64,000 nucleotides of DNA, taken from Marsupella aquatica. Taxonomy: Eukaryota; Plantae; Marchantiophyta. The notes beneath the pieces were generated by a model. That model saw nothing but the letters and a program-made list of their open reading frames with translations, had not been told where the DNA came from and searched no databases. How positions within the stretch are numbered: the first letter of the stretch is position 1; every line of letters begins with the position of its first letter. Both the position numbers and the translations under genes were made by a program. The DNA is taken from the NCBI GenBank assembly GCA_973895155.1, contig OZ316896.1:21519643-21583642 (forward strand). The letters run 5' to 3'. Shown here one piece after another: positions 5,001-20,567 of the stretch.

Positions 5001-6201
5001 AAACATTTATTTCAATTATTATAATATGGAATCCGGCCCAAACTCTCCAAGTGTGCTTACCAACTTGAAAGGAAGGAACAGAATCTAGCCGCCAAATGCA
5101 TTGGAGAATTGTTTTTGTCACTATTCGATCGTGTGAAGTGGAGTGCCCAAACAGGGCCTATTATCTTGGAGGAGGAGCTATTTACCATAGGCTACTAGGG
5201 AGTAAGTGGTGTGCGTGCAGATTATAAACATTATAATACACAATCCCTACCTTTTCCCTCATGGTTTGTGCACTTTTGGATGTAACTCATTTTGCTTGTT
5301 GGATTCAGATCTGCATTTTCCTAGTCATGAGATCTAGTATCATATACAATTTCAATGTATAAATTAAAGTATTATGGTACATGGATATAACTGTATCTAT
5401 TTGCTTCACCTTATTGTGTAAGAAGCCTCAACTCTAGTTATGCTACTAACACTAATTGTGTGGCACAGGGGAATTCGAATACCTCTCTAACTAGTCTAAA
5501 ACTTTGGTTTTTAGCAATAATTGCCAATGATTCAAGAAACTAAAGTGGGGATGGAGCTCCACATTGTTTATGAAGCCAAGATGGATTTGGCAAAGCTTGG
5601 ATGGACTTGCTCCCAAGATTAAATTTGAGTCAATCATATAACTTTGTTTACATTTTTGACTGAAATGTGACCTGTAAATGGTCTTCTTATTGTTTGTAGA
5701 CTGTTTCAGTTATGTTACCCAACCGGTCTCCTCGGTAGCATGGCTATTTGACGACCTTAAACATGAAAGACGTGAGGACATCATGCCATTACTAAGGAAC
5801 ACTGGTTTTCAGTTAACCCATATAAAAATTTCCAATTGTAGAGTGAAATCATGATTCACCATATTTGACCATCTCTGTGTTCATTGAAAATGGAGTGAAT
5901 GATCTAAAAAAAGAGTCAAACTTTGTCACACAATGTATTGGACATGAGAGACCATGCTGGAAATTTGTCAGCTTAAATTAGGATCCAGAAGTCCTTCAAA
6001 TAAATCAAACTATCCGCCAAATTCAAAGGTAAGGTTTGTGTGTCAAAATAGTTATCCTTTGTTGAATGTAATGTGCCATTTTTATGGAAAAGAAACCCCT
6101 AGATACTTCTCTACTTGCATTTTCTTTAAAGAGGTAAATTAAATTCAAAAGTGTAACATTTCAATGCATGCTAAAATAAATGAAAAACCTCCTCATATGA
6201 C

Positions 6202-7108
6202 AAAGCTGATTTTTTCCTCGCTACTCGGTAACCAACACTCCCAAAGCTGACAGGGCCCAATGTGATAAACTAAATCTATGTTGCTTTACATGCTATAACA
6301 AAGCTGATTTTTGCCTCCCTATTCGGTAACCAACACTCCCGAAGCTGATAGGGCCCAATGTGATCAACTAGATCTATGTTGCTTTACATGCTATAACAAA
6401 GCTGATTTTTGCCTCCCTATTCGGTAACCAACACTCCCGAAGCTGACAGGGCCCAATGTGATCAACTAGATCTATGTTGCTCTATACATGCTATAACAAA
6501 GCTGATTTTCCCCTCCCTATTCGGTAACCAACACTCCCGAAGCTGATAGACCCCAATGTGATAAACTAAATCTATGTTGCTGTACATGTTATAACAAAGC
6601 TGATTTTTGCCTCCCTATTCGGTAACCAACACTCCCGAAGCTGACAGGGCCCAATGAGATCAACTAGATCTATGTTGCTCTATACATGCTATAACAAAGC
6701 TGATTTTCCCCTCCCTATTCGGTAACCAACACTCCCGAAGCTGATAGACCCCAATGTGATAAACTAAATCTATGTTGCTCTACATGTTGTAACAAAGCTG
6801 ATTTTTGCCTCCCTATTCGGTAACCAACACTTCCGAAGCTGACAGGGCCCAATGTGATCAACTAGATCTATGTTGCTTTACATGCTATAACAAAGCTGAT
6901 TTTTGCCTCCCTATTCGGTAACCAACACTCGCGAAGCTGACAGGGCCCAATGTGATCAACTAGATCTATGTTGCTCTATACATGCTATAACAAAGCTGAT
7001 TTTCCCCTCCCTATTCGGTAACCAACACTCCCGAAGCTGACAGACCCCAATGTGATAAACTAAATCTATGTTGCTCTACATGTTATAACAAAGCTGATTT
7101 TTGCCTCC
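6202..7108. repeat. 98-100-bp tandem repeat array, left part (9 full units plus a truncated one)
   Basis: Unit aaagctgatttttgcctccctattcggtaaccaacactcccgaagctgacagggcccaatgtgatcaactagatctatgttgctttacatgctataac starts at 6202, 6300, 6398, 6498, 6596, 6696, 6794, 6892, 6992 and 7090; the last unit is cut by the transposon. Confidence 0.97.
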
Positions 7109-7290
7109 ATCACTATATTCATTAAAAGTGGAATTATAAAGAAGATTTGGAAATTTGGGCATTTAAAAACACACTTTTAGGCATAAGAATTGTAAATTTG
7201 AAGGATGAAAAATGAAAATTTAAGCATCATGAATTATAAATTTGGGGCAAAAAAATAGACATTTGGGCAAAGAAAATATTAATTTGGATA
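7109..7290 (+). repeat. Left TIR and AT-rich subterminal region with degenerate ~20-bp periodic repeats
   Basis: 25-bp TIR followed by recurring aaattt(g/a)...aaaa motifs at roughly 20-bp spacing. Confidence 0.7.
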
Positions 7291-7693
7291 ATATTAAAAA
7301 ACATTTGGGTGATAAAAAGTGTTCATTTGGTTGAAAATAGATAGAACGTGTGTAATAACACATAAGCTTGGATAGCATCTATACTCAAAACATCTAGCTT
7401 GGATAGGATCATTATCTAAGCAACAATGAAATGCTAGACAAGTTAAATATCTTATATTCAAACTAGGATGACATCCAAGTAACTTAGAACTGCCATCATT
7501 TTCTAGAAATATATGTACTAAGACAAAAATAACAATTTTTATCAAAAAGTCCATTCAATAACTAAGAAAGATCATAGAGTATTTGATTGCAAGCCTTGTT
7601 CTCTCACTTACTTTAGACAAATGCATGGAAATTAACTTGACCCTCCTACCTACAAGTCATTACATAGTGGACACTTGTGACCACTCTATCACT

Positions 7694-10600
7694 CTACTCA
7701 TCAATACCTTCCATGTAAGTTTTGAGAGTTTTCAAAACATTCTTGGGAATTGTCAAACCTCTATCCATAATATTTTGTTCTTTGGCACCTGACTTAAACC
7801 CATACATTGCAGAATTTGCAAATTGCCAACTTTGAGTGATAGTGTTAAACCCAGGATCTAGCTCCCAAGTCTTAGTGGTCTGAAAGCAACGTTCGTATCG
7901 AACATCATCCTTTGCATCATGCTTACCATGTTTAGGCCTCCACCATTGCACTTGGAACATAGGAGCACACCGCTTAGGAATGCTACTTAGGTGAATGCTC
8001 TTAGAAAACCTTGAAGAAGACCCTTCACTAAATTGCAAATCTAGTGAAGAAACCTCATGGTTTGGATCCACACCACCCAAAGCTCGAACTAACCAGAAAC
8101 GCCCTTTGCCATTTTTTTGCTCCCATTCATCCTCTGGACGTAAAAACACAAAGTGACCCTCTTGAATATCTTGTAGGGGAATCCAACGTGCAAGTTCTCG
8201 CTCTTCTTGTGCACCAACGAAGGGTGCAGCTTGACCTTCCATCTCTTCCATGTACTCATTTTGAAGGTCCATCATCTCTGAATTTTGAGTAGGTTCACTT
8301 GAAGGTTGAGAGGTCCCCAAAATCACCTTGTAACCTGTGCCATGGTTAGTCTTTGGCCAGAAATCAGTTGTCAATGACAATTGTCTTTCTCCCTCCCCTT
8401 CTATTGTAATTGCCTCAGAGAGTGCCATAACAAGCCTCTCCCAATATTTCACCAAAGGAAATCTCTCGCAGTATGCTGCAGAGGTCTCATCCTTGCAACT
8501 TTTCCTCAAGAAATCAATGTAACGATTAAGGAATGGGATGATTTCCTCGACTTTCTTTTGTACCTCCCCCGATATAGGTTTTGCAAATGGTTGGCCCTCC
8601 GGTAAAATGAGCGTGTTTGTGATGAGATCAGTTCTCCAAATTGACCTCCCTGTTGCTGGAAGCCAAGGTTGTTTGACATGTGCTTTATATTGATACACTG
8701 GCACATTATCCCTCATGGAGAATAGAAATGCCACTGGTTTTGAGTGACCTTCAATCTCTTTCACTTGGAAAGCCTTCAAATAGTGCTTGTAAGATGCAAC
8801 CTCCTGAATCAATCGTGGTACGGGATGGATGCTTTCACACTCCCAAACCTCAGCCATCAACGCAAGGAGGGTAGCAACCTCTTTGTACCTGACCTGTTTG
8901 GATACTCGAGAAAATAGTGCATCCACATCCTCATGGGTGTGGCCAACCATGAGGAATGACATTTGCATAGTTTCAAACACCCCCTGCTAACAAGCTCGCT
9001 GCAAAATGCCATCACATATTGATTTTTATTATATTTTCCTGAATTGTTCATCTGCAGTGTTAGGTGCCTTGGTAAGGGCTTGAAAGAGCTTGTAGTCTCA
9101 GGATCAACTCTAGAACCAGCATCTGTTGTGCTGGTTTTTTGGCTCTCCTGACCGTCATCAAGGCCTTGAAACTTGAGAATTGAAACATTTTTGGGTTCCA
9201 AGTAACCCGCTTGAAATGCTTCAAAGTCCAAAAGAGACTGAAATATTGGCCTAGTTGCATTCCAATTGAAAGCTTCAAGCATGTCTCCCGTTTTGTCTCC
9301 AGTGTAATCCTCCAAATCTCGAAGGCATTTGGCCAAAGATGTCACAGTGAAGTCTGCATCTCCAGGCCAAAGGCCAGTCAAACTAAAGTGTGCATACACT
9401 CCTGGATCCCTTCCATGGGTTAACATCCCAGTAAGGGCAATGGCCAGAGGTTGACCACTACCAGAGAGAGATTTTGGAGTGGGGACCAATCTGGGGATCC
9501 AAGTCTTGGCTTGGTCCATCTTATCATGAATAATGCAAAGATAGTTTTGAGGATCCTTCTTTGCAAGAACCCTATGAGCATAGTAAACATATCTCCTTGA
9601 CATTTGTTCACGAAGATGTCGTGCTCTTTTCTCTTCAATCTCTGCACGCTCTTTTTTTCTCTTCTCCCGCATCAATTGATCTTTGAACTCAGTGCAAAAT
9701 GTGCACTTGGCAAATGCACTGCCCTTGTGAAAGTCAAAATTATCAAAAGAATTTTTCCAGATGTTGTACATGGTAACTTCAGTAACCTTAGCATAGCCGT
9801 CCAATTCCATCTTTGCAAATACCTCTTGAAAAATCTCCTTCTTAGTGAAACATGATGGGAGTCGATATTCGACAGTATCGGTGCCGTTGGACCCACCATA
9901 GGGAAGATGTGGCATTGGTTCTCCATTTTGGATTAAAATGGACTCCAACAATGCACGAGCATGCAAGGTGCTTGATCGTGTCTTATGTTGCCCTTGATTT
10001 CCATGGAAACCAATTGTGCACCCAGCTTCGTACTGATTTTTGCAATCATCACACTATTCATTAAAAGTGTATTTTATTTTGTTCACTTTTAGGCCTCTAA
10101 AGATTCACTTTTTGATCTCTAAATGTACACTTTTTAAACCCAAAAGGTACACTAAGGTACAATACTCTACACCTAACTGATCAATTGTAAACTTGAGGGG
10201 GCAAAAATGATCTTGACTATAAGGAGTCTCATCCTAGTTCATTTACAAAGGATGAACATGGTGGTATATTTGATGGCCATCAACTTAATTTCTTGCCCAA
10301 TTGTACACTTTTTGAGGGCCAAATGTATACTTTCTATTGCCCAAGTGTTCATAAATTGAATAATAATTCACTTTTAATGAATAGATTGATAATCATAATA
10401 CTTTGCCGTACTAAACCCATGCATTTTTATGAACGCATCCTTACAAACCACACGTCCCTTTAGAACAAAAAATCCTTTTCTCTTGACTTGGTCTTCTCTA
10501 CACCCAAAAAGATTGAAGATATGACTTGTTTTGTTGTCACTTGACATTCCATGAAATTCCCTCCTTATTGCCTCCAAGTCCTCTCAAGTTGGCATGTTCA

Positions 10601-11778
10601 AGCAACACTTTAACCTGCAACAACCTTCTCTTTGGATGGAATCAATGGACTCCTCGGTGATTTTCAAAAGTGCCCTTGATTGCAAATGTTTTTTTTTTCT
10701 CCTCCAGATCCACTTTGGTCCTTCTAATGAAATTATAAGGTCTTTTTGGAGGTTTCCCATCACCATCCAAATCCGGGTCGCTCTCATTTCGACCCGATTC
10801 TATCCACACATGTGAACCTTTCTCAAGGATATCCCCGAGAAACATTTGAGATGAAATCAACAACAAAGATTTGATTTCCCACCTCACCAAACCTGGAGTA
10901 CCAGCACAGATATTTGGAAATAATGCGGGATCGTTGATATTCACAACAGCTACACCCACATGCTCTGGACCAAGAAGTTCATCATCAACAGCACCTGCTT
11001 CAAAAGGAACTGTGATAACCCCTATCGCAACCTTACGACAACGAGAAACATCATACAAGTCAACTTCCTCTGCCATCCAGTTGGAACGCATTGTAAAATC
11101 TTTCAATGGAAGATCCTTAAACAGGTTTGCACCCGGGTTTGCACCAACAAACATGCCAGAACCTCGAATAGAGCCTTTTCTTGAAACATCAGCAACATCC
11201 CACATTACCCAAGTCTGCATTGCCTCTTGCACTGTGTCAGCTCCAGGATGTGGATACGGTAGTTTTCTATTTCCCTGAACAACCTCTGATATTTGTATAC
11301 TGACACGGCCAACACCGAGTCGTTCACTATGACAAGTGTCCATTGGATTGGTATTGAAGACAACTCCTTTTGATACAAGTTCATCTAAAATGAACATCTC
11401 AACCTCCTCTCCTTCAGCAAGGTTGCCTCCTTTACCACCAACATCCATTTCGGAACATCCTTCATCCCCGTCCACTGGAGTAGGAACACCATCCACAGCG
11501 GTTCTTTTCGGCAATGTTGAAGACCTCAAATATGCCAAGGAAGAATCCCAGATCACACACGAGTCAACTGCATCACCTAGGCTCGATGATGTTTTGGATG
11601 GAAATGGTAGTGGACAAGATGTTTCAAGACACCTCTCGATAAGGACCCCAATTCGATTTTTCCCAAGACAAATATTGTGTATAGTGTCTTTGGGATCAAC
11701 CTTTTGGATGGTCCCAATTGCCACTTCAAAACCATCAATTATCAATGAAACTTCATCCCCTCGCATAAATTTACTCAT
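7694..11778 (-). pseudogene. Sola-like DDD transposase with three N-terminal En/Spm TNP1-like repeats (~1245 aa reconstructed)
   Basis: ORFs 10642-11778, 10584-10787, 10374-10577, 8857-9966 and 7694-8980 join into one protein. Motifs: CCRLKCC, VCKDAFIKMHGFS, HGNQG, CTFC, IIHDKMDQ, LQMNNSGKYNKN (expected LQMDNxxxxNKN), SFLMVGHTHEDVDALFS. Lesions: frameshift in the T-run 10689-10698, TGA at 10584-10586, MITE at 10048-10390, frameshift in the C-run 8980-8984, apparent catalytic D to N change. Confidence 0.85.
10048..10390. mobile_element. 343-bp non-autonomous element (MITE) of the same TIR family, nested in the transposase gene
   Basis: TIRs ATCACACTATTCATTAAAAGTG and ATCAATCTATTCATTAAAAGTG (20/22). 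TSD AATC at 10044-10047 and 10391-10394. Removal restores the frame AKYYD-CKNQYEAGCTIGFHGNQG...LHARALL. Subterminal tacacttttt-type repeats are present. Confidence 0.93.
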
Positions 11779-11956
11779 GGTAGCGAAAGGATCTCTGCAT
11801 CCAAAAACATTTAAAAATTGTTCAGCTGATGTGCATACTGATAAGCACTACTCTAGATATTACAATATTAGATCTAAACATTTGAATTCTATTTAAAGGA
11901 AAAAAATATTTGGGAGTTTATGTGTATTGGCTTTACACAACAGGATTCTAAGGTCA

Positions 11957-12387
11957 GGGACGCTCTTGGAGCGAGGCAAGGTTGCGACGCTCTAGGGGCG
12001 AGGCGATTGAGGGACGCTCTAGGGGCGAGGCGATGGAGGGTCGCTCTAGGGGTGAGGCAATGGAGGGTCGCTCTAGGGGCGAGGAGATGGAGGGTCGCTC
12101 TAGAGGCGAGGCGATGGAGGGACGCTCTAGGGGCAAGGTGAATGAGGGTCGCTCTAGGGGCGAGGCGATGGAGAGACACTCTAGGGGCAAGGTGAATGAG
12201 GGCCACTCTAGGGGCTAGGCGATGGAGGGTCGCTCTAGGGGCGAGGCGGTTGTGGGACGCTCTGATGGCGAGAAAATGGAGAGCGGATGCCCTTGGAGAA
12301 AAGAAAGGGCAGGATGCTCCTGATGAAAGGTAAGTGTGTGACGCTCTTGGAGCGAGGCAAGGGCATGACGCTCTTGGAGCGAGGCAA
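11957..12387. repeat. 27-bp minisatellite built on an imperfect palindrome, upstream of the transposase ATG (probable 5' intron)
   Basis: Unit gggtcgctctaggggcgaggcgatgga, about 11-12 copies at 11957-12270 plus two more near 12340 and 12367. A minus-strand acceptor tgcag lies just upstream of ATG 11778. Confidence 0.92.
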
Positions 12388-13109
12388 CGGGAGAGCAAGA
12401 AAAGATGAGCACAATCCTGGAGAAGCAAGAATTGTGAAGGAAAAGAGAAAATATGGAAATGAATAAATCAGGGGAATGATTAAGCTGAATTAGACCATTG
12501 AAGTGTGTAGACGTGTGGGTAGACGAGTGTGTCGTTAGGAACCCTACATTATCTAGGGCTTAGTTAGGTCCATATATTAAGATAAAGCTAGGGCCAAATA
12601 TTTGGTGGATATCATAGAGAAGAAATTAAGAGAATGGTAGATGAAGTAATACCTCTCTTAAGGACTATAGAAGACGTGTCGCCAACCAAGGACACCAAAA
12701 CTAATGCAATATACTTGAAACAGGACTTTCCTTGCACGAACTCTTGTAACCATAAATGTCCAAGTCAGTCGAATCAGTCACCGAACAGAAGCAAGATAGA
12801 CAAGGGCCGAAGGGCGAGACCGAGAGTGAGCAATGACCAGAAACGCACGCGCCATACAAAAGAGAGAAATGATTGGAACTGTAGAGCTTTATACCATTTG
12901 TGAGCAAGCTTTAGCCAAGTTTGTCCTGAAGGGGTTCACAACATCGAGAGGCCGAAAGTCTGATTACTCTGATCGGCATTCTGTGGACACCCGTACGACC
13001 GTGCATCATTTTTCAAAATCTATGGATACCCGTACAGCTAGGTCATTATGAGGGTTGCGAGTTCACAGGCGCGTGGAAGGGAGCAAGTGGCTGGGTTGCG
13101 TAAGGTCGG

Positions 13110-13160
13110 GTACGATCGGCCGTGGCGTACGATCGGCCGTGGCGTAGGATCGGCCGTGGC
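13110..13160. repeat. 17-bp tandem repeat (x3) in the divergent promoter region of the transposon
   Basis: gtacgatcggccgtggc repeated three times, one with a variant base. Confidence 0.9.
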
Positions 13161-13447
13161 AGTGAGGGTATAGGAAGGCAAAAGGCAAAGACATTACCTC
13201 ATTTGCCTCATTGTCTTCTTGCATCCATCTCCTCCTTCATTGTCTTCTTGCCTGGCTGCCCTGGTTTCCCTCCTCCCTCTTGCCTCGCTCATAGTAGATT
13301 TTCTTGCCTCGCTCTGTTGATTTTTCCTTGCTCATAGTAGATTTGTTTCCTTGCTCTGTAGCCTCGCTCCGTGGTGTGGTCTAGCTATAGGTGTTCTTGT
13401 ATACTAGGCTGCCACGTGTCATCTAAACGTTTGTGAGGCATTTTTCA

Positions 13448-16400
13448 ATGGCTACTTCCTCTAGTTCTGATGATTCTACTAGCACTTCTAGTTCTGGGTA
13501 GTCCCTAAACTTTGATTCTAGTAAAATCTTTGAGTATGATTCTCAAGACACTTTACTAAAGATGTCGGTGGAATCCACTTTGGCCGCCTCAAGGGGATTT
13601 CATATCACAGTTCCACGTAAGTATGATTCAACAATTGATGCAAGTTAGTCTTTGAAGGGTCACTCTTAGAGCGACCTTATCTTGCCTAAGATCTGTCGTT
13701 GTTATTGGTTGGATGTTGATTTAAGTTTTCCTAGGGTCGCTCCAGGAGCGACCCAACTTTGTTGTTGGTTGGACGTTGATTTAAGTTTTCCTAGGGTCGC
13801 TCCACGAGCGACCCAACTTTGTTGTTGGTTGGACCTTGATTTAAGTTTTCCTAGGGTCGCTCTTGGAGCGACCCAACTTATTTGTCGGTTGGACCTTGAT
13901 TTAAGTTTTCCTAGGGTCGCTCCAGGAGCGACCCAAATTTGTTGTTGGTTGGACCTTGATTTAAGTTTTCCTAGGGTCGCTCTAGGGGCGAGGCAACACA
14001 GAAGATCTCTTGCTTTAATGTTTGTCGTTTCAATTTGTTTTTCTAGGAGAACAACTTGGATCCCTAGAGTTAAATATTATGGCCGAGGATGTCAAGGACT
14101 TTATTTTCCCTGGACAAGATAAGGCAGGATTTTTGTGGGCACTTGAAGTAGGGATCATGGAGAATGACTTGTCGATGATTTGTATCAAGGCAATCACTGC
14201 TGAGACAATGAACGACAAGAAGATAGTTGCGTTGGGCCCTGTGGTCCTTGTAAATTGCAGTGATAACCGCAATGTTACAATCATTATTGAATCCAGAGAA
14301 AGATCTCAGTGGATGAGACTTTACTTGCCAATCAAGATGTACTCGTCAATTATCAACGTGGAGTGGATAGCACGCTCGGAGGCTAGTATTTGTTCAATGG
14401 GATTTCTTCCAGATGGGTTCACTGCAGAGGATCTTCTTGAGAGGCATGGAAGATTCAAATTGAGTGGGGTTGATGTTGTCTTTGGATTCCTCTCTGTGAA
14501 GCGGTACATGCATGATCATCCGGACCTTATAGATCTTCCTAACACATGGGTTGTCCAGAGGATGATTGAAACAGCACGCTTTTCATATGAGCAAGCAATT
14601 GATAAGAGTTTTATTTTCTCTGATGAGTTTGACGAAGATGCTTGCATGAAGTGGATTTCAACTCAAAAGAAGAAGGAAGAAAAGCATCGAGGTAAGGCGA
14701 AGATGAAGATGAAGGCCAAAGAAATGACGTCGGCTGAAACACAGAAGAAGAGAAAACAAAGAGAGCCAAGGAGTGAAGGAAGTACTAGAGGAAAAAAGGC
14801 GGCGTTGAAGAAGAAAGATAAGGACTCCGACAAGAAGCCCAAGAAGAAGGCCAAGATTGGAAAATCAAAGCCCGTGTCAGCGTCAAAAGCAAGGTTGGTC
14901 TTGGATCCGGAGGATGATACATGCCCAACAGATGCACCAGAGGAACGAGATGTATTGGAGGGGCAGAAAGCTTTGCGGAACATCGAGCAATACTACACTT
15001 TTGGAATCAGGGAGGTTTTTGAAATCCCGGTTAAAAGTATTCTTCCGCCTACTGCAGTTTTTGTGTATCGGATGTTCAACCAGGCTCATGCCTTAGAGAT
15101 AGCAAAATCAATGATGAAAAACCCTGGCCAGGAACCACATGTTGCAGATTTGATTCCATTTCTAGAGCGCACTAAGCAGTTGTTACATTTTGACAATACC
15201 GCATGCGATCGGAAGCAATTTTTGTTTGGTGTTAAGAAGCAAGAGATACAATTTCTTGCAATCAGTGGGCAACATTCTGCAAAGGCTGCACAATGGATTC
15301 AAGGGTGGGCAGACAAGGATGCCAAGCTAACTGATCTTGCTAGCAAACTCCAATATCTGAAAGCGAGGATCTTATCAGACCTCACTCCAAGGGCAATTTT
15401 GGTCGAGCACTCGAGCCTTTCAAATGCAGTAAATCAGACCATGCAGTTTAAGTCTTGTTTTCTAGAGACAGTTGTTCATGCGAGAAGGCAATTTGATGAA
15501 TGTGGGAAACCACCGCGTCCAGGAATTGGAACAAACCAAAGTACAGACAACCAGAGATACCAGGTAAACATTTTCATTAGTTGGAACTGTAGTTTAATTT
15601 TGCCTCGCTCTTAGAGCGACCCAAATGAAATTGAATGATGAATACAATGATTGCCCCAACCATTTTCATATGGCTTTGTCATTTTCTTCGCCTCGCTCTA
15701 GGGGCGAGGCAGAGAAGTTGAAGTTTCTAAGTTTAAACATCTAACATGTTTTTTGGTGGATGAATGTAAATGCAGGATTGGTTTGCCCTCGCAAAGATAA
15801 CAATGGGAAAGTCGAGCTTGAAAGCCATTTTTTGGTTGCTCTTTGCTGAGGATAAGCTTTTCCATTTGTGGCAAACTGTTTGTTGGGATTGGTTGGCAGG
15901 GAAGCTCCCTGGCGGGGCAGGAGAGTATGGTGGGCCGTGGCCACTAAAGCTGGTCACGCCAACTCTTTTTAGATGTTTTGAAGGGGAGATCAGTTCTAAG
16001 GATATCATTGATATATTGACCGCGGTTTATGAGAAGAAAGCACTTCTCAAGAAAGATGCCTCCAACAAGATGGATCTGGTGTCAATGCCAAATATGGCTC
16101 ATACCATCAAGGTAATGACTAAATTGAAGCAAGTCATTGTTGAGTACTTTGTTGAGAAGCACAAGGAGAAGTTTCCCGGGGGGACATCGTGGGCTTCGGT
16201 GGTCAACATCATGCCGGCCTTGGGATCTCAACTTGAGCTGACAAAATTGCGAAGAGCAGCTGGGGAGGTCTACCTTAGCAGTTTATTAAGGAAGAACATT
16301 GTGAAAGAGGCTTTCCCTCAAAGTCTAATGGTGAGATTAGACGGGTTGTACTACAAACAATTTGGTGGAGTTGGGCGCACACGAACAGAGCCTTTCTTGA

Positions 16401-19400
16401 CGTTCTTCAGTGAGAATCTAATGAAGACAACCACGCCAGACTTATTGGAAGAGGCGACGCCAATGTGTCCACTTGCAATTGTTGATTTTAGTAGGGCACG
16501 ACAACATGAATGGACAGATTCGGAAATTTTTGTATTGCTCCAATATATTGTGGAGTTGCCAAGGAATACAACCATTGTAGTTGTCATGACTACTCATCCA
16601 GGGCCACTTCCAGCCAACATCTTAAGTGCCCTAAGGAAATTAGGACATGAAAAGCATTTGGCCATCCATGTTGAATACGGGAGTTATGATCGGGAAGATC
16701 GCCCAAATCCGCAGGGCTTAATTTTTACAGGAGCGATTGAGCAGGTCATTTTTGCTGGAATTACAGGTGAAGACAATTTTGATTGGAATCAATTGTTTAA
16801 GCCAGAGTTCAATTCAAAATTTAGTTTTCACCCCGATGTTGACTGTGATTTCAATATTGAAGTGAAGGCTGACAAGCAAGAGAAAAGCAAGGGAAAAGAG
16901 AATGAGACAGAGGAGCAGTCTCCCGCATTTGATATGGCAGATTTATTGCGGCAAGCTCCAATGTTTGAGATGGTCGAAAGTCGAGGAGGATTTGTCAATC
17001 CGCATGCCAAGCCCTGACACATGCTCAAAAATATTATTGAATGTTTTTCCGGTGAGGGGGAGACTGTCCTCGATTTTTTTTCAGGAGGGCAGGTTTTGAA
17101 GGTGGCCTTGTTGGCATACCGAGATTGTTTTGTCTATTCAGACACTTTGCAAGAACACCATTTCACCCAAGCATATGCAAGGGTTTTGTGCAACAGGATT
17201 CCCTCCCTTATGAAAGAGCGAATGGGAGTACATGGTCCTAGGAGAGCTCATCTAAGTGTTCTTTGCGGGCCTATGGACAACCCCCAACCGGGCCCTCAGC
17301 GAGTTGACCTTGAGGATGGTGAGTTGCAGCATGATGATGGAGGTTCAAGTCCTATGGTAGAGGAGGATTTTGGCGGAAATTGGGATGCTCGAGCAACAGA
17401 AATGGTTGGCATTACTACCTACGGTGTTGAAGGGCTACCTCAACTCGACATAGTGATGTCGGGTCGCCCTGAGAGCGACCCTCCATCAAATCCTCTCAAC
17501 CCTGAAGTATCAAAATTGCATCCCGAGAGACCGCAGGTATCGTGCACATTGGATGCAGGTTGGCAGAATATTGGGGCCACTACACCCACCACGGACCTAC
17601 AAGTTGGTATTGCAGAAGCGATTGAAGACAACCTTCCACTTGGAGAGACAACAAATGTTGAAGCTGAAGAGGCAGGTGCTTCAACTTGTTCCGAGTCTCC
17701 TCAATTATGTTCGTCAGGGAATAAATTGGTCTTCACAAGGATGTCAAGCGGAAGCCCCATAATATTACGCTTGTCTCAAAAGTCTGGATCTGAGATAGGT
17801 AGAACAAGATATATGAAGACAGTCCGTCATGCAACTCATTTCATTTGGAGAAATGGACCTAAAGTTGGATTGAAAGAAACGTTGGAGGATGCGCCTAAGT
17901 TAATGGTCAAACCTCATTACATAATAGACAAATTGAGATTGAGTCCAGTGTTTGCGCCGGCAACGTTGGTGGAGCAGCTTCCTGTTGGCGTCAATTTTGA
18001 TATCCAAAGTGATCTAGGTGATAAAATGATAGATGAATATGGGTCATTTAGTAGTGGAGGTTAATATTATGGTTTAGTTCTTCTATTTTTCACAATAATC
18101 TAAAATATTATGTTTGGAAATCATATATGGACAGACCAAAGTTTTGTCATAGCATCTCTTCCATCGAAGGATATTATTGGTCTACCTTCAGCAAGCGGTA
18201 CCCTGGTCCAAGACAAAGCATTTGAGCAAGGTACTTCTACATTGATATATCAAAATGCTTTGACATTCAAAAATGATATGTTTGTTTTCCCCATTAGGTC
18301 GGGTCGATCCAGGTTCGACCCTAAGTTCTTCTTTTATATCTTTTAGATATAATTTTGATTCATTTGGATCTTTGCAGATTTCACTCCTAAATTGCACTCT
18401 GATATAAGAAGAAAACTCTTGATTTTGGACCTGAACAAAATTTGTTGGGATTGCGTCAAAACAAAAAGCTCGGGACCGTTAAGATCTACAACAACTGTGC
18501 GGGGTGTGCATTGGGGGAGACGGGGTGGATTCAATTTCATGTACGTGGAAAGGCCAGGGTTGCACCAATTTTTGGAGGTGGCTTTCAAAGGTTTTGATGT
18601 CGCATTGTGGACTTGTGCGGGGAGGCCAAGAACTAATGAAATGATGAATTTGATTTTCAAAGAAGAGGAGCGGAGGCAATTTAAATTTGTTTTCACACAA
18701 GAAGATGCTTTTGATACTGGCATAAAAAGACCGGACGTAGCAGATGGGAAAGGAAATATTATGTTGAAGGATTTGCTTGTGGTGTGGAGTCGTTTTGGAG
18801 ACAAGTATGATGATACAAACACTCTACTTATTGATGACTCTCCAGTGAAGGCTTTTGCAAATCCACAGTATAGTGGTTTGTTCCCAACTCCCTTCTCACA
18901 CGTTGCTGAGAGTGACACTTTTCTACCAGAGATACTTTGGCCATTCCTTAGAAAATTGTGGAAGGCTTATGACATCCGACAATATATATCTGTCAACAAT
19001 CCACTTTGGTCATTTGTTAATATAAATGATGACCGTGAAAGTAATGCTGCAATCACTTTCCCATAAGTGGGGAAGTAAGATTTGGCGTTCCAAGATTGAG
19101 TATACCATCTTGGATGTCACTGGAGATGAGATATGTTGGGAAGTGAGGGATATGGTACAATCCTACCCTACATTTGAGAACCTGACCGAAGATGATATGA
19201 AAGATGTGGTCAACAACTGTTTGGGCGAGTCTTATGCAGGTCCCTTCAGAGAAAATCCTCGCCGATTTGTCTGGGAAGTTCTAAAGACTAGGGATCTCAC
19301 CTCTAAGTTTAAAAACCGTTATCCCAAAGACACTTGCACTCGTGACAGACTATATGACCCAAATGGAGAGCGACTCACTTGTTCAAATCAGTCATGTAGA

Positions 19401-19442
19401 CATATTCATGGAGGCATAGAATTTGAAATTTTAGATGATTAA
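13448..19442 (+). pseudogene. Transposon cargo gene, 5 exons (13448-13616, 14047-15563, 15776-18059, 18135-18230, 18378-19442), ~1700 aa: Lys-rich region, ParB/Srx-like, N4/N6 DNA methyltransferase-like and FCP1/NIF phosphatase-like domains
   Basis: All four GT-AG introns join in phase (1,0,1,1). ParB-like motifs: EIPVKSI..VYRMFN..AKSMMKNPG..FLAISGQHSAKAA. MTase-like motifs: NPHAKP*HMLKNIIECFSGEGETVLDFFSGG..ALLAYRDC. NIF-like motifs: LLILDLN, ERPGLHQFL, VALWTCA, KDL, NTLLIDDSP. Lesions: TAG at 13499-13501, TGA at 17015-17017, +1 frameshift at ~19026-19063. Confidence 0.78.
13705..13995. repeat. 60-bp tandem repeat (~5 copies) in intron 1 of the cargo gene, each copy carrying the 21-bp palindrome
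   Basis: Unit ttggttggaccttgatttaagttttcctaGGGTCGCTCcagGAGCGACCCaactttgttg with an exact 60-bp period. Confidence 0.95.
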
Positions 19443-19729
19443 TCATTATGTTTGTGTACATTGTAGGACACAAGATTGGAGTCATGCAATCATTTTTCTA
19501 TTTCACAGGTCATAGAACTACTTTGGACTTTACACTAGCTTGACCATTGGAGTAGGATCGACATTATGGCTAGCCAACCTTGAATATATGTTATGATAAA
19601 TGAGATGATTAATCTCACTTTGAATTTAATCATGAGTTTTTACCAAATGATACATGTTTGTCACTTATCTATTTAATTTCAAATACAATTAATATTAATA
19701 ATTTCTGTATTATGATTAATTGATTAAAA

Positions 19730-19896
19730 TCAAATTTGGAGTGCAAAAGTGTAATTTTAAACCAAAAAGAGTGTATATTTAGTCTTGAAAAATTGTTTAT
19801 TTGGAGCAAAATTAATGGACTTTTTAGAGACAAGAATGTAAATTTGAGGATCACAATCTGGACTTTTAAATTTCCAGTTTTAATGAATACTGTGAT
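19730..19896 (-). repeat. Right subterminal region with degenerate ~20-bp periodic repeats and the right TIR
   Basis: Recurring aaaa(g/t)tgt..ttt motifs; TIR at 19872-19896. Confidence 0.7.
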
Positions 19897-20567
19897 CTCC
19901 CTATTGGGTAACCAACACTTCCGAAGCTGACAGGGCCCAATGTGATCAACTAGATCTATGTTGCTTTACATGCTATAACAAAGCTGATTTTTGCCTCCCT
20001 ATTCGGTAACCAACACTCGCGAAGCTGACAGGGCCCAATGTGATCAACTAGATCTATGTTGCTCTATACATGCTATAACAAAGCTGATTTTCCCCTCCCT
20101 ATTCGGTAACCAACACTCCCGAAGCTGACAGACCCCAATGTGATAAACTAAATCTATGTTGCTCTACATGTTATAACAAACAAGCTGATTTTTGCCTCCC
20201 TATTCGGTAACCAACACTCCCGAAGCTGACAGGGCCCAATGTGATCAACTAGATCTATGTTGCTCTACATGCTATAATAAAGCTGATTTTTGCCTCCCTA
20301 TTTGGTAACCAACACTCCCGAAGCTTACAGGGCCCAATGTGATAAACCAGATCTATGTTGCTCTACATGCTATAACAAAGTTGATTTTTGCCTCTCTATT
20401 CGGTAACCAAGACTCCCGAAGCTGACAGGGCCCAATGTGATCAACTAGATCTATGTTGCTCTACATGCTATAACAAAGCTGATTTTTGCCTCCCTATTTG
20501 GTAACCAACACTCCCGAAGCTTACAGGGCCCAATGCGATAAACTAGATCTATGTTGCTCTACATGCT
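19897..20567. repeat. 98-100-bp tandem repeat array, right part (~7 units)
   Basis: Same unit as 6202-7108, resuming at ctccctatt immediately after the right TIR. Confidence 0.97.

Follow-up and report, generated by a model that had tools for sequence, protein, structure and literature searches.

A predicted ParB-fold and methylase-fold cargo protein in a liverwort DNA transposon, and the palindromes confined to its element

The window analysed here is a stretch of 64,000 nucleotides from the liverwort Marsupella aquatica (assembly GCA_973895155.1, contig OZ316896.1), a eukaryotic, repeat-rich DNA that contains a whole DNA transposon. Opposite its transposase gene, this transposon carries a spliced cargo gene whose product joins a ParB-fold domain, as judged from a structure model, to a methylase fold. 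Four points are established: the fold, in the form of a model; a gene that encodes the fusion; its position opposite the transposase in an element with terminal inverted repeats; and the confinement of a set of palindromes to this element. By analogy with known systems, it is proposed with moderate confidence that this ParB-fold accessory protein binds the palindromes of its own element, marks the copies of its own family and either counters silencing or activates the transposase; the cargo protein would then bind palindromes, pair, enter the nucleus and act on chromatin. The land-plant member, the evidence of family-specific palindromes and the eroded catalytic sites are added here, the ParB-methylase type of transposon gene having already been reported recently. 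The initial annotation of this DNA, which proposed the ParB-like domain and its fusion to a methylase, overlooked the palindromes as well as the erosion of the catalytic motifs. The features on which the argument is built are the following (positions are those of the window).

7109..19896, no strand: whole DNA transposon, 12,788 bp, with inverted ends and a 4-bp target duplication
15012..15443, + strand: ParB-fold domain (AlphaFold model compared with ParB 7bnk; model residues 312–455)
15776..16390, + strand: helical domain of about 200 residues between the ParB and methylase folds
16390..17220, + strand: beta-class N6A/N4C methylase fold, recognized via the model of the homologue P0127

The ParB-fold region, read on the + strand in the frame of the ATG at 14079, includes FEIPVKSILPP from 15018 and IQFLAISGQHSAKAA at 15246–15290. 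An AlphaFold2 (AF2) model was built on an alignment of 84 sequences, comprising the window protein and 83 others, which were selected by eye from 126 for domain coverage and a length <700, and has a mean predicted local distance difference test score (pLDDT) of 85.6. Myxococcus ParB 7bnk superposes on the AF2 model in VIA-align with Z 9.9 and a root-mean-square deviation (rmsd) of 2.1 Å over 94 residues, and the top 14 VIA-align rows are ParB, Noc, PadC, KorB or pNOB8-like ParB. With Foldseek, the first 20 rows among the PDB matches listed are ParB, Noc, PadC or sulfiredoxin (best E 2.9e-3, no row at E 0.001), and the best viral match is a siphovirus partition protein (E 1.5e-4). When 48,161 chains were searched independently of Foldseek, the four top-ranking ones had a ParB fold (KorB Z 8.1, PadC Z 8.0), a Z of about 8 in this search being close to the level attainable by unrelated folds. 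The independent Atlas model of a Calypogeia homologue likewise has a ParB fold. Structure prediction, one of the checks put forward in the initial annotation, therefore matches the ParB fold in three structure searches, and it is concluded from these models that 15012–15443 encodes a real ParB-fold domain, beyond chance by structure.

Sequence profiles behave differently. The match to the ParBc profile that the initial annotation had looked for was not obtained: Pfam detects no PF02195 (ParB_N) in the exon, in any of the nine aligned members or in any of 46 homologues, and hhalign, run against 30 bacterial ParBs, reaches a score of 18.2 (probability 2.3%), where shuffled controls go up to 19.5. 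None of the Pfam, PHROGs and PDB sequence searches names the ParB-fold domain. DndB is a weak Pfam match in four of the nine aligned members (E 0.0055), and the top match of the PDB sequence search, a fimbrial fusion, was judged to be due to chance.

The hhalign register, though without significance, places SGQHS on the SGERR of bacterial ParBs. In this register, the column after GQH holds S in 75 sequences, L in 4, T in 3, H and C in 1 each and R in none (n = 84), and the GxxR (Box II) arginine is missing in all 84 aligned sequences. The ParB-like domain of the initial annotation thus stands as a fold, whereas the R of its G.HR..A pattern is an S. The residues conserved in the domain are R331 (15069), P353, G-Q-H-S (15267–15278) and N449 (15423). 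The H of the GQH motif is found in 83/84 sequences and column 398 is Q in 78, L in 5 and H in 1, while R331 occurs in 68/73 and N449 in 67/68 of the rows that have a residue there. By their position in the sequence, R331 and N449 may correspond to the pre-Box I Arg and the Box III Asn of ParB. As the Box II arginine is gone family-wide, the ParB fold is present and is, by motif, not that of a canonical CTPase.

A sulfiredoxin- or SerK-like enzyme, i.e. a reductase or kinase that uses ATP and not a DNA-associated module of the ParB type, would have the same fold (SerK Z 7.1 and Arabidopsis sulfiredoxin Z 6.1 among the 48,161 chains). This identity is nevertheless very improbable. ParB, Noc, PadC and KorB reach Z 7.5–9.9 in VIA-align, with a lower rmsd, above the Z 5.0–6.1 of sulfiredoxins, which agrees with the initial assignment to ParB. 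The catalytic Cys of sulfiredoxins sits in a GCHR-type motif, whereas the motif of the present family has no conserved Cys (H 83/84, S 75/84). Furthermore, the fusion partners and the palindromes point to DNA.

The methylase fold is clear from the model of P0127, to which the methylase stretch of the window is 47% identical. This model superposes on CcrM with Z 16.3 (3.8 Å, 206 residues), on RsrI with Z 14.6 and on PvuII with Z 13.6, and Foldseek gives E 4.7e-6 for the methylase fold. The motifs come in the order IV before I, as in beta-class N6A/N4C enzymes. Three Riccia gene models carry both the GxH and the methylase motif in one protein, which confirms the ParB-methylase fusion and, together with the fold of the P0127 model, bears out the N6/N4 methylase fusion proposed initially. 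The window retains DFFSGG, and 10 homologues have preserved the S-adenosylmethionine (SAM)-site motif D[FIL]FSG. None of 13 homologues has the catalytic motif [DNS]PP[YFW], the window having IVDFSR (VDFS in its place). A TGA interrupts the methylase of the window at 17015–17017. The contigs that cover 17015 all read C in 4/4 runs, indicating that this stop is peculiar to the window copy, and the methylase frame is open in other copies of the element.

These observations bear on a possible role as an active self-methylating enzyme, whose ParB part would dock on the palindromes and whose methylase would write N4-methylcytosine (4mC) or N6-methyladenine (6mA) via a non-standard active site. The whole beta-class fold is kept, as are D[FIL]FSG and, in most rows, an Asp at the motif IV strand; real 4mC writers exist in liverworts according to the sections consulted of the preprint of Walker et al., and self-modification is suggested for algal proteins in the portions of the algal reports covered. 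However, such an activity appears unlikely. The catalytic motif is missing from the 13 homologues and the window alike, motif I is also lost or lacking in three Riccia models (P0056, P0083 and P0111) and the published active enzymes described in the accessible parts of the Walker and retrotransposon DAM preprints retain TSPPY or NPP. With the SAM-site motif kept and the catalytic motif lost, standard methylation by this fold is unlikely, and the family-wide loss of both catalytic signatures, that of the ParB fold and that of the methylase, argues against a simple view of methylation of its own DNA.

The palindromes are the second line of evidence. They lie mainly in the following features.

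11957..12385, no strand: 10 palindrome copies in the intergenic region between the divergent genes, 8 of which belong to a tandem array of 27-bp units
13617..14046, + strand: inferred intron 1 of the cargo gene, containing 6 copies of the palindrome, 5 of which belong to a tandem array of 60-bp units
15564..15775, + strand: phase-0 GT..AG intron downstream of the ParB domain, holding two palindromes (15605 and 15693)
17221..18064, + strand: acidic linker in which one palindrome lies (17464), plus a small domain at the C terminus that close homologues share

Within its 12,788 bp, the element has 19 matches to the core TCGCTC-nnn-GAGCGA at ≤2 mismatches (15 at ≤1), against none in the 49,658 bp outside it, satellites left out; 100 shuffles give a mean of 0.16 and a maximum of 1. 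Eighteen of the 19 copies are non-coding (10 intergenic, 6 in intron 1 and 2 in intron 2), the remaining one being in the coding linker. The palindrome is found in unlike surroundings: in the 27-bp array, in the 60-bp array and as single copies. A miniature inverted-repeat transposable element (MITE) inserted in the transposase gene, the ends of the element and the transposase frames contain no copy, which shows that the palindromes are not the transposition signals. Two looser palindromes with GGGTCG..CGACCC arms are located at 10775, in the 5' frame of the transposase, and at 18301, just before a phosphatase frame. In 11781–14046, the observed/expected ratio of CpG is 0.79 in the palindrome-rich spacer and 0.78 in intron 1, against 0.34 in the transposase and 0.08 and 0.12 in the ends; the weaker depletion in the spacer and intron 1 is partly due to the CG-rich motif itself.

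Distant homologous loci carry palindromes of their own. A metagenome scan using the close alignment gave no locus (0/140 candidates), and one using the distant member P0105 gave three, L001, L002 and L003, from 587 candidate stretches. Their ParB domains are 25–27% identical to that of the window; L001 is 97% and L003 76% identical to L002. The word TTCCTCTCG-nn-CGAGAGGAA is present in seven copies in L002 (five upstream, two in the intron behind the ParB exon) and in four copies in L001. L003 has three copies of a word with CCACT..AGTGG arms, two of them in the intron behind the ParB exon, and each half-site of this word is one base different from that of L001 and L002. In 4/4 loci, two palindrome copies are therefore located in the intron that follows the ParB exon (the window and L001–L003), with differing words. 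When strict cores are considered, there is no crossing between L001/L002 and L003, and neither word is found in the element of the window. The intron palindromes form the centre or the arms of near-perfect 60–62-nt hairpins (L002:2218–2341, L001:1777–1896).

The reader of the palindromes could instead be the transposase or some host factor, or they could be by-products of tandem amplification, while the ParB-fold protein would do other work, for example as a non-specific transposition scaffold. Most copies are in tandem arrays, the two intron copies of L001 and L002 lie within long hairpins, the 10 intergenic copies flank the 5' end of the transposase and, according to the consulted part of the Sasaki preprint, transposases can activate cognate copies. 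Conversely, neither the element's ends nor the MITE that shares these ends has a copy, the same word recurs in unlike units and two copies are maintained in the ParB-exon intron of all four loci despite their differing words. This alternative is thus held to be rather doubtful, without being negligible.

Several points nevertheless weigh against the proposed binding of the palindromes by the cargo protein. As 13 of the 19 copies belong to two tandem arrays, the palindromes occupy about four independent places. At ≤2 mismatches, the L003 word is also found in L002 (seven times) and L001 (twice), and the window word once in L002 and twice in a bacterial control locus. The co-variation amounts to three word types in four loci, L001–L003 come from one metagenome and their contigs are too short to show a transposase. 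The helical domain compared with the ParB helix-turn-helix (HTH) by hhalign scores 11.3, below the shuffled maximum of 11.9. Replacement of the Box II Arg by Ala in ParB-fold proteins abolishes nucleotide binding, according to PMC12704722, so that the canonical clamp cycle may not run. Finally, transposases can themselves be sequence-specific activators, as stated in the part of the Sasaki preprint covered.

The activity proposed for the cargo protein at its own palindromes can be outlined as follows. The helical domain behind the ParB fold, which occupies the position where ParB has its DNA-binding domain, is a candidate palindrome reader that would recognize the half-sites one by one, in the manner of ParB/parS, Noc/NBS and KorB. 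On the two-fold site, two subunits would be held together by their ParB folds. The loss of the GxxR arginine suggests that this fold is probably a scaffold for pairing or spreading rather than a normal cytidine triphosphate (CTP) switch. The methylase fold would probably bind or shield DNA, or recruit host chromatin factors, and perform no standard methylation. Residues 8–322 of the Atlas model of P0003 align with ParB_N+HTH_ParB clusters (TM 0.46–0.52). ParB DNA-binding domains are absent from the VIA-align rows listed for the P0127 model, lists that methylase matches filled and in which the helical domain was barely tested.

A bolder extension, put forward only tentatively, is that land-plant transposons run a eukaryotic self-recognition of the ParB/parS kind. 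Family-specific protein-palindrome pairs would co-evolve like VANC and its targets, both catalytic centres would be off, and a CTP-independent clamp with a pseudo-methylase would shield the element from silencing. If true, plants would have a second, ancient anti-silencing system, together with a natural library of orthogonal protein-palindrome pairs. Named protein variants with predicted cognate sites make the idea directly testable, and L002 and L003, which are 76% alike and have palindromes one base apart per half-site, are an informative pair for cross-binding. Should binding not occur, there would still be a divergent and unannotated family with the ParB fold in the transposons of seedless plants.

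The distribution of the family extends beyond Marsupella. A word-based search retrieved 10 relatives among 254 candidates, four of them from Calypogeia fissa, and a profile of nine sequences matched 120 proteins at E ≤0.001 among 1.84 billion. Thirty proteins were looked up, including nine from Riccia sorocarpa, one from the clubmoss Diphasiastrum complanatum and one unrelated nematode protein. Among the 120 proteins matched by the profile, at least two are unrelated, P0089 (nematode DNase II) and P0101 (a repeat protein); both are outside the 84 aligned sequences. No longer fused homologue was found among 235 candidates of the word-based search, a weak negative since fused gene models surfaced elsewhere. 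The gene family carries the idea of a ParB-methylase accessory protein into liverworts and a clubmoss. Iyer et al. (2011) is reportedly the source of the green-algal versions. The ParB-linked methylases listed in the available part of Iyer et al. (2016) come from chlorophytes, chytrids and haptophytes, and none from land plants, and the literature search, with subscription journals and bioRxiv supplements beyond its reach, found no paper on a land-plant member.

Concerning its origin, the initial annotation held that the ParB and methylase domains had been taken as a unit from a prokaryotic or viral source and had later gained introns. That both folds descend from prokaryotic or phage types is supported, phage N6_N4 clusters, some of them fused to ParB_N, backing this part of the claim. 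Their transfer as a unit is plausible for the deep past and hypothetical for this lineage; no prokaryotic or viral homologue is found by sequence, and about 200 helical residues separate the two folds. Likewise, the nearest prokaryotic or viral homologues with the same domain order are phage clusters by structure and none by sequence. As for the introns, the junction 15564–15775 is read across by Calypogeia gene models and 40 of 53 scorable homologues end at this spot, which indicates that the intron behind the ParB domain is old within the family.

The entry of a phage or bacterial ParB-methylase gene into this plant lineage directly and as one unit, followed by the gain of introns, is judged improbable. 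ParB_N + N6_N4_Mtase fusions are enriched in phages, as far as the consulted sections of PMC12704722 report. In the Atlas, the structures closest to the methylase part belong mostly to phage N6_N4 clusters, ParB_N being found on 11–98% of the members in 5/10 rows, and the siphovirus partition protein mentioned above is the best viral match of the ParB model. Against such a transfer, no phage match is better than E 2, PHROGs gives single-member hits only among the 84 sequences, viral contigs give 0/76 candidates and the lone bacterial candidate, L004, is not in a matching coding frame. This locus (36 residues, 47%) lies between frames of annotated length and was treated as a chance match. The nearest clusters by sequence features are fungal (DUF3723, score 0.96), and the same architecture in a brown-algal Sola1 element, as described in the part of its report consulted, fits an old eukaryotic transposon module. 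The same pairing in algal transposons suggests that a nearer donor may be another eukaryotic transposon.

The remainder of the cargo gene comprises three features.

13448..13616, + strand: inferred first exon of the cargo gene, its ATG, donor and phase fitting the acceptor at 14046
14079..14528, + strand: N-terminal domain with a predicted PH/PTB-like fold (VIA-align rows, model residues 1–150)
14664..14903, + strand: Lys-rich linker, partly disordered (pLDDT <50 at residues 218–258)

The putative first exon has an in-frame TAG at codon 18 in the window copy. Most VIA-align rows of residues 1–150 are PH, PTB or FERM-F3 domains, with a middling best Z of 6.1; this predicted domain would be a eukaryotic-type module placed ahead of two prokaryotic-type folds. 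The Lys-rich stretch reported initially ahead of the ParB domain is indeed present, with 27 K in residues 196–275 (14664–14903), and may be a nuclear localization signal.

The transposon setting and the other genes of the element include the following features.

7694..11847, − strand: transposase gene with DUF7869 (PF25273, E 9e-22 and 2.6e-13)
10048..10390, no strand: MITE of 343 bp inside the transposase gene, with the same terminal repeat as the element and the target duplication AATC
18359..19442, + strand: second cargo, a NIF/FCP1-like HAD phosphatase frame (PF03031, E 3.4e-16) and a 138-aa frame

The arms of the element (7109–7140 and 19865–19896) are inverted and 84% complementary, and the 4-bp target duplication CTCC is found at 7105–7108 and 19897–19900. 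The insertion site is a 98-bp satellite array, the same satellite occurring on both flanks (6196–7108, 9.3 copies; 19897–20567, 6.8 copies). Position 7109 is the starting point of contigs in three runs, and all 30 bins of the element are covered by contigs in 4/4 runs, contig depth being unusable as a copy number. Among seven runs listed as carrying the sequence, none is of RNA, which speaks neither for nor against expression. In the window copy, the transposase is broken by the 343-bp MITE, by frameshifts and by a stop; this copy is likely dead. The empty site of the MITE (a skip of 347, with 4 letters ambiguous) is present in 4/4 runs. A 401-aa frame (10642–11847, − strand) upstream of the DUF7869 frames has no Pfam match and appears joined to the transposase via a slip in an A run. 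By its motifs the transposase may be Sola-like, and Sola elements have a 4-bp target duplication; both the element and the MITE have 4-bp duplications, and the transposase matches DUF7869. The element and the MITE have subterminal repeats of 21–22 bp (7176–7287, 10084–10153), and separate 17-bp and 23–24-bp repeats lie upstream of the cargo gene (13110–13160, 13278–13356).

The consensus first motif of such phosphatases is DxDxT, and that of the phosphatase frame is DLNKI. The 138-aa frame, which overlaps it and has Cys/His residues at its end, has no Pfam match. This cargo, which resembles a C-terminal-domain (CTD) phosphatase, could act on the transcription of the element. Pfam scans of the long frames of the element detect no ParA-type ATPase.

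Among known systems, bacterial ParB/parS, Noc/NBS and RK2 KorB share with the cargo protein the N-terminal fold (Z 7.5–9.9), the conserved Pro and GxH, perhaps also the conserved Arg and later Asn, and the many palindrome copies in the same replicon. In the sections consulted of PMC12704722, Noc is described without a ParA motif and KorB as a regulator of genes. Unlike bacterial ParB, the window protein has another residue in place of the GxxR arginine, its fold is longer by about 50 residues, no ParA accompanies it and a methylase fold lies behind; its gene is spliced, and the HTH equivalence is only a candidate one. Phage ParB_N + N6_N4_Mtase fusions have the same order, ParB then methylase. 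DUF3723 clusters, a conserved cargo of fungal Starships in the available part of the Starship preprint, are the nearest look-alikes of P0003 by features (0.96); the DUF3723 model matches no member of the cargo family in Pfam scans, and no paper naming both DUF3723 and ParB was found in the literature searched.

VANC of VANDAL elements is likewise an accessory protein, with short family-specific motifs that have been amplified tandemly, both within introns and upstream of the transposase. It differs in its unrelated domains (DUF1985, DUF287), in motifs that the consulted part of PMC5735166 does not describe as palindromes and in a function that has been demonstrated. Of PAG3 and PAG2 in the red-algal Plavaka (EnSpm) transposons of Bostrychia (Petroll et al., 10.1101/2025.02.11.637652, in the portion available), PAG3 is a ParB-like accessory protein located beside inverted-repeat arrays. 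Its best HHpred hit is Myxococcus ParB 7BNR, the second-best structure for the window model, and a PF01555 methylase is present on the same element. However, PAG3 is fused to a 2-oxoglutarate oxygenase, the methylase is encoded separately, together with a SET domain, and the transposase is of another superfamily.

The closest counterpart is Sola1-1_Ec32 of Ectocarpus, known here from the accessible part of PMC12477816. By description, it is also a large DNA transposon with an accessory gene opposite the transposase, which encodes a ParB-like domain and an N4C/N6A methylase in one protein of 1,104 residues, which is proposed to bind, and also to modify, the element that carries it. The host is a land plant instead of a brown alga, and the element measures 12.8 kb here and 21.5 kb there. 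Compared with the description of Sola1-1_Ec32, the liverwort element adds the erosion of both catalytic signatures, a predicted PH-like N-terminal domain, a phosphatase cargo and the mapping of family-specific palindromes. Since the same architecture has been published for Sola1-1_Ec32, the window gene can be viewed as the land-plant version of a known architecture.

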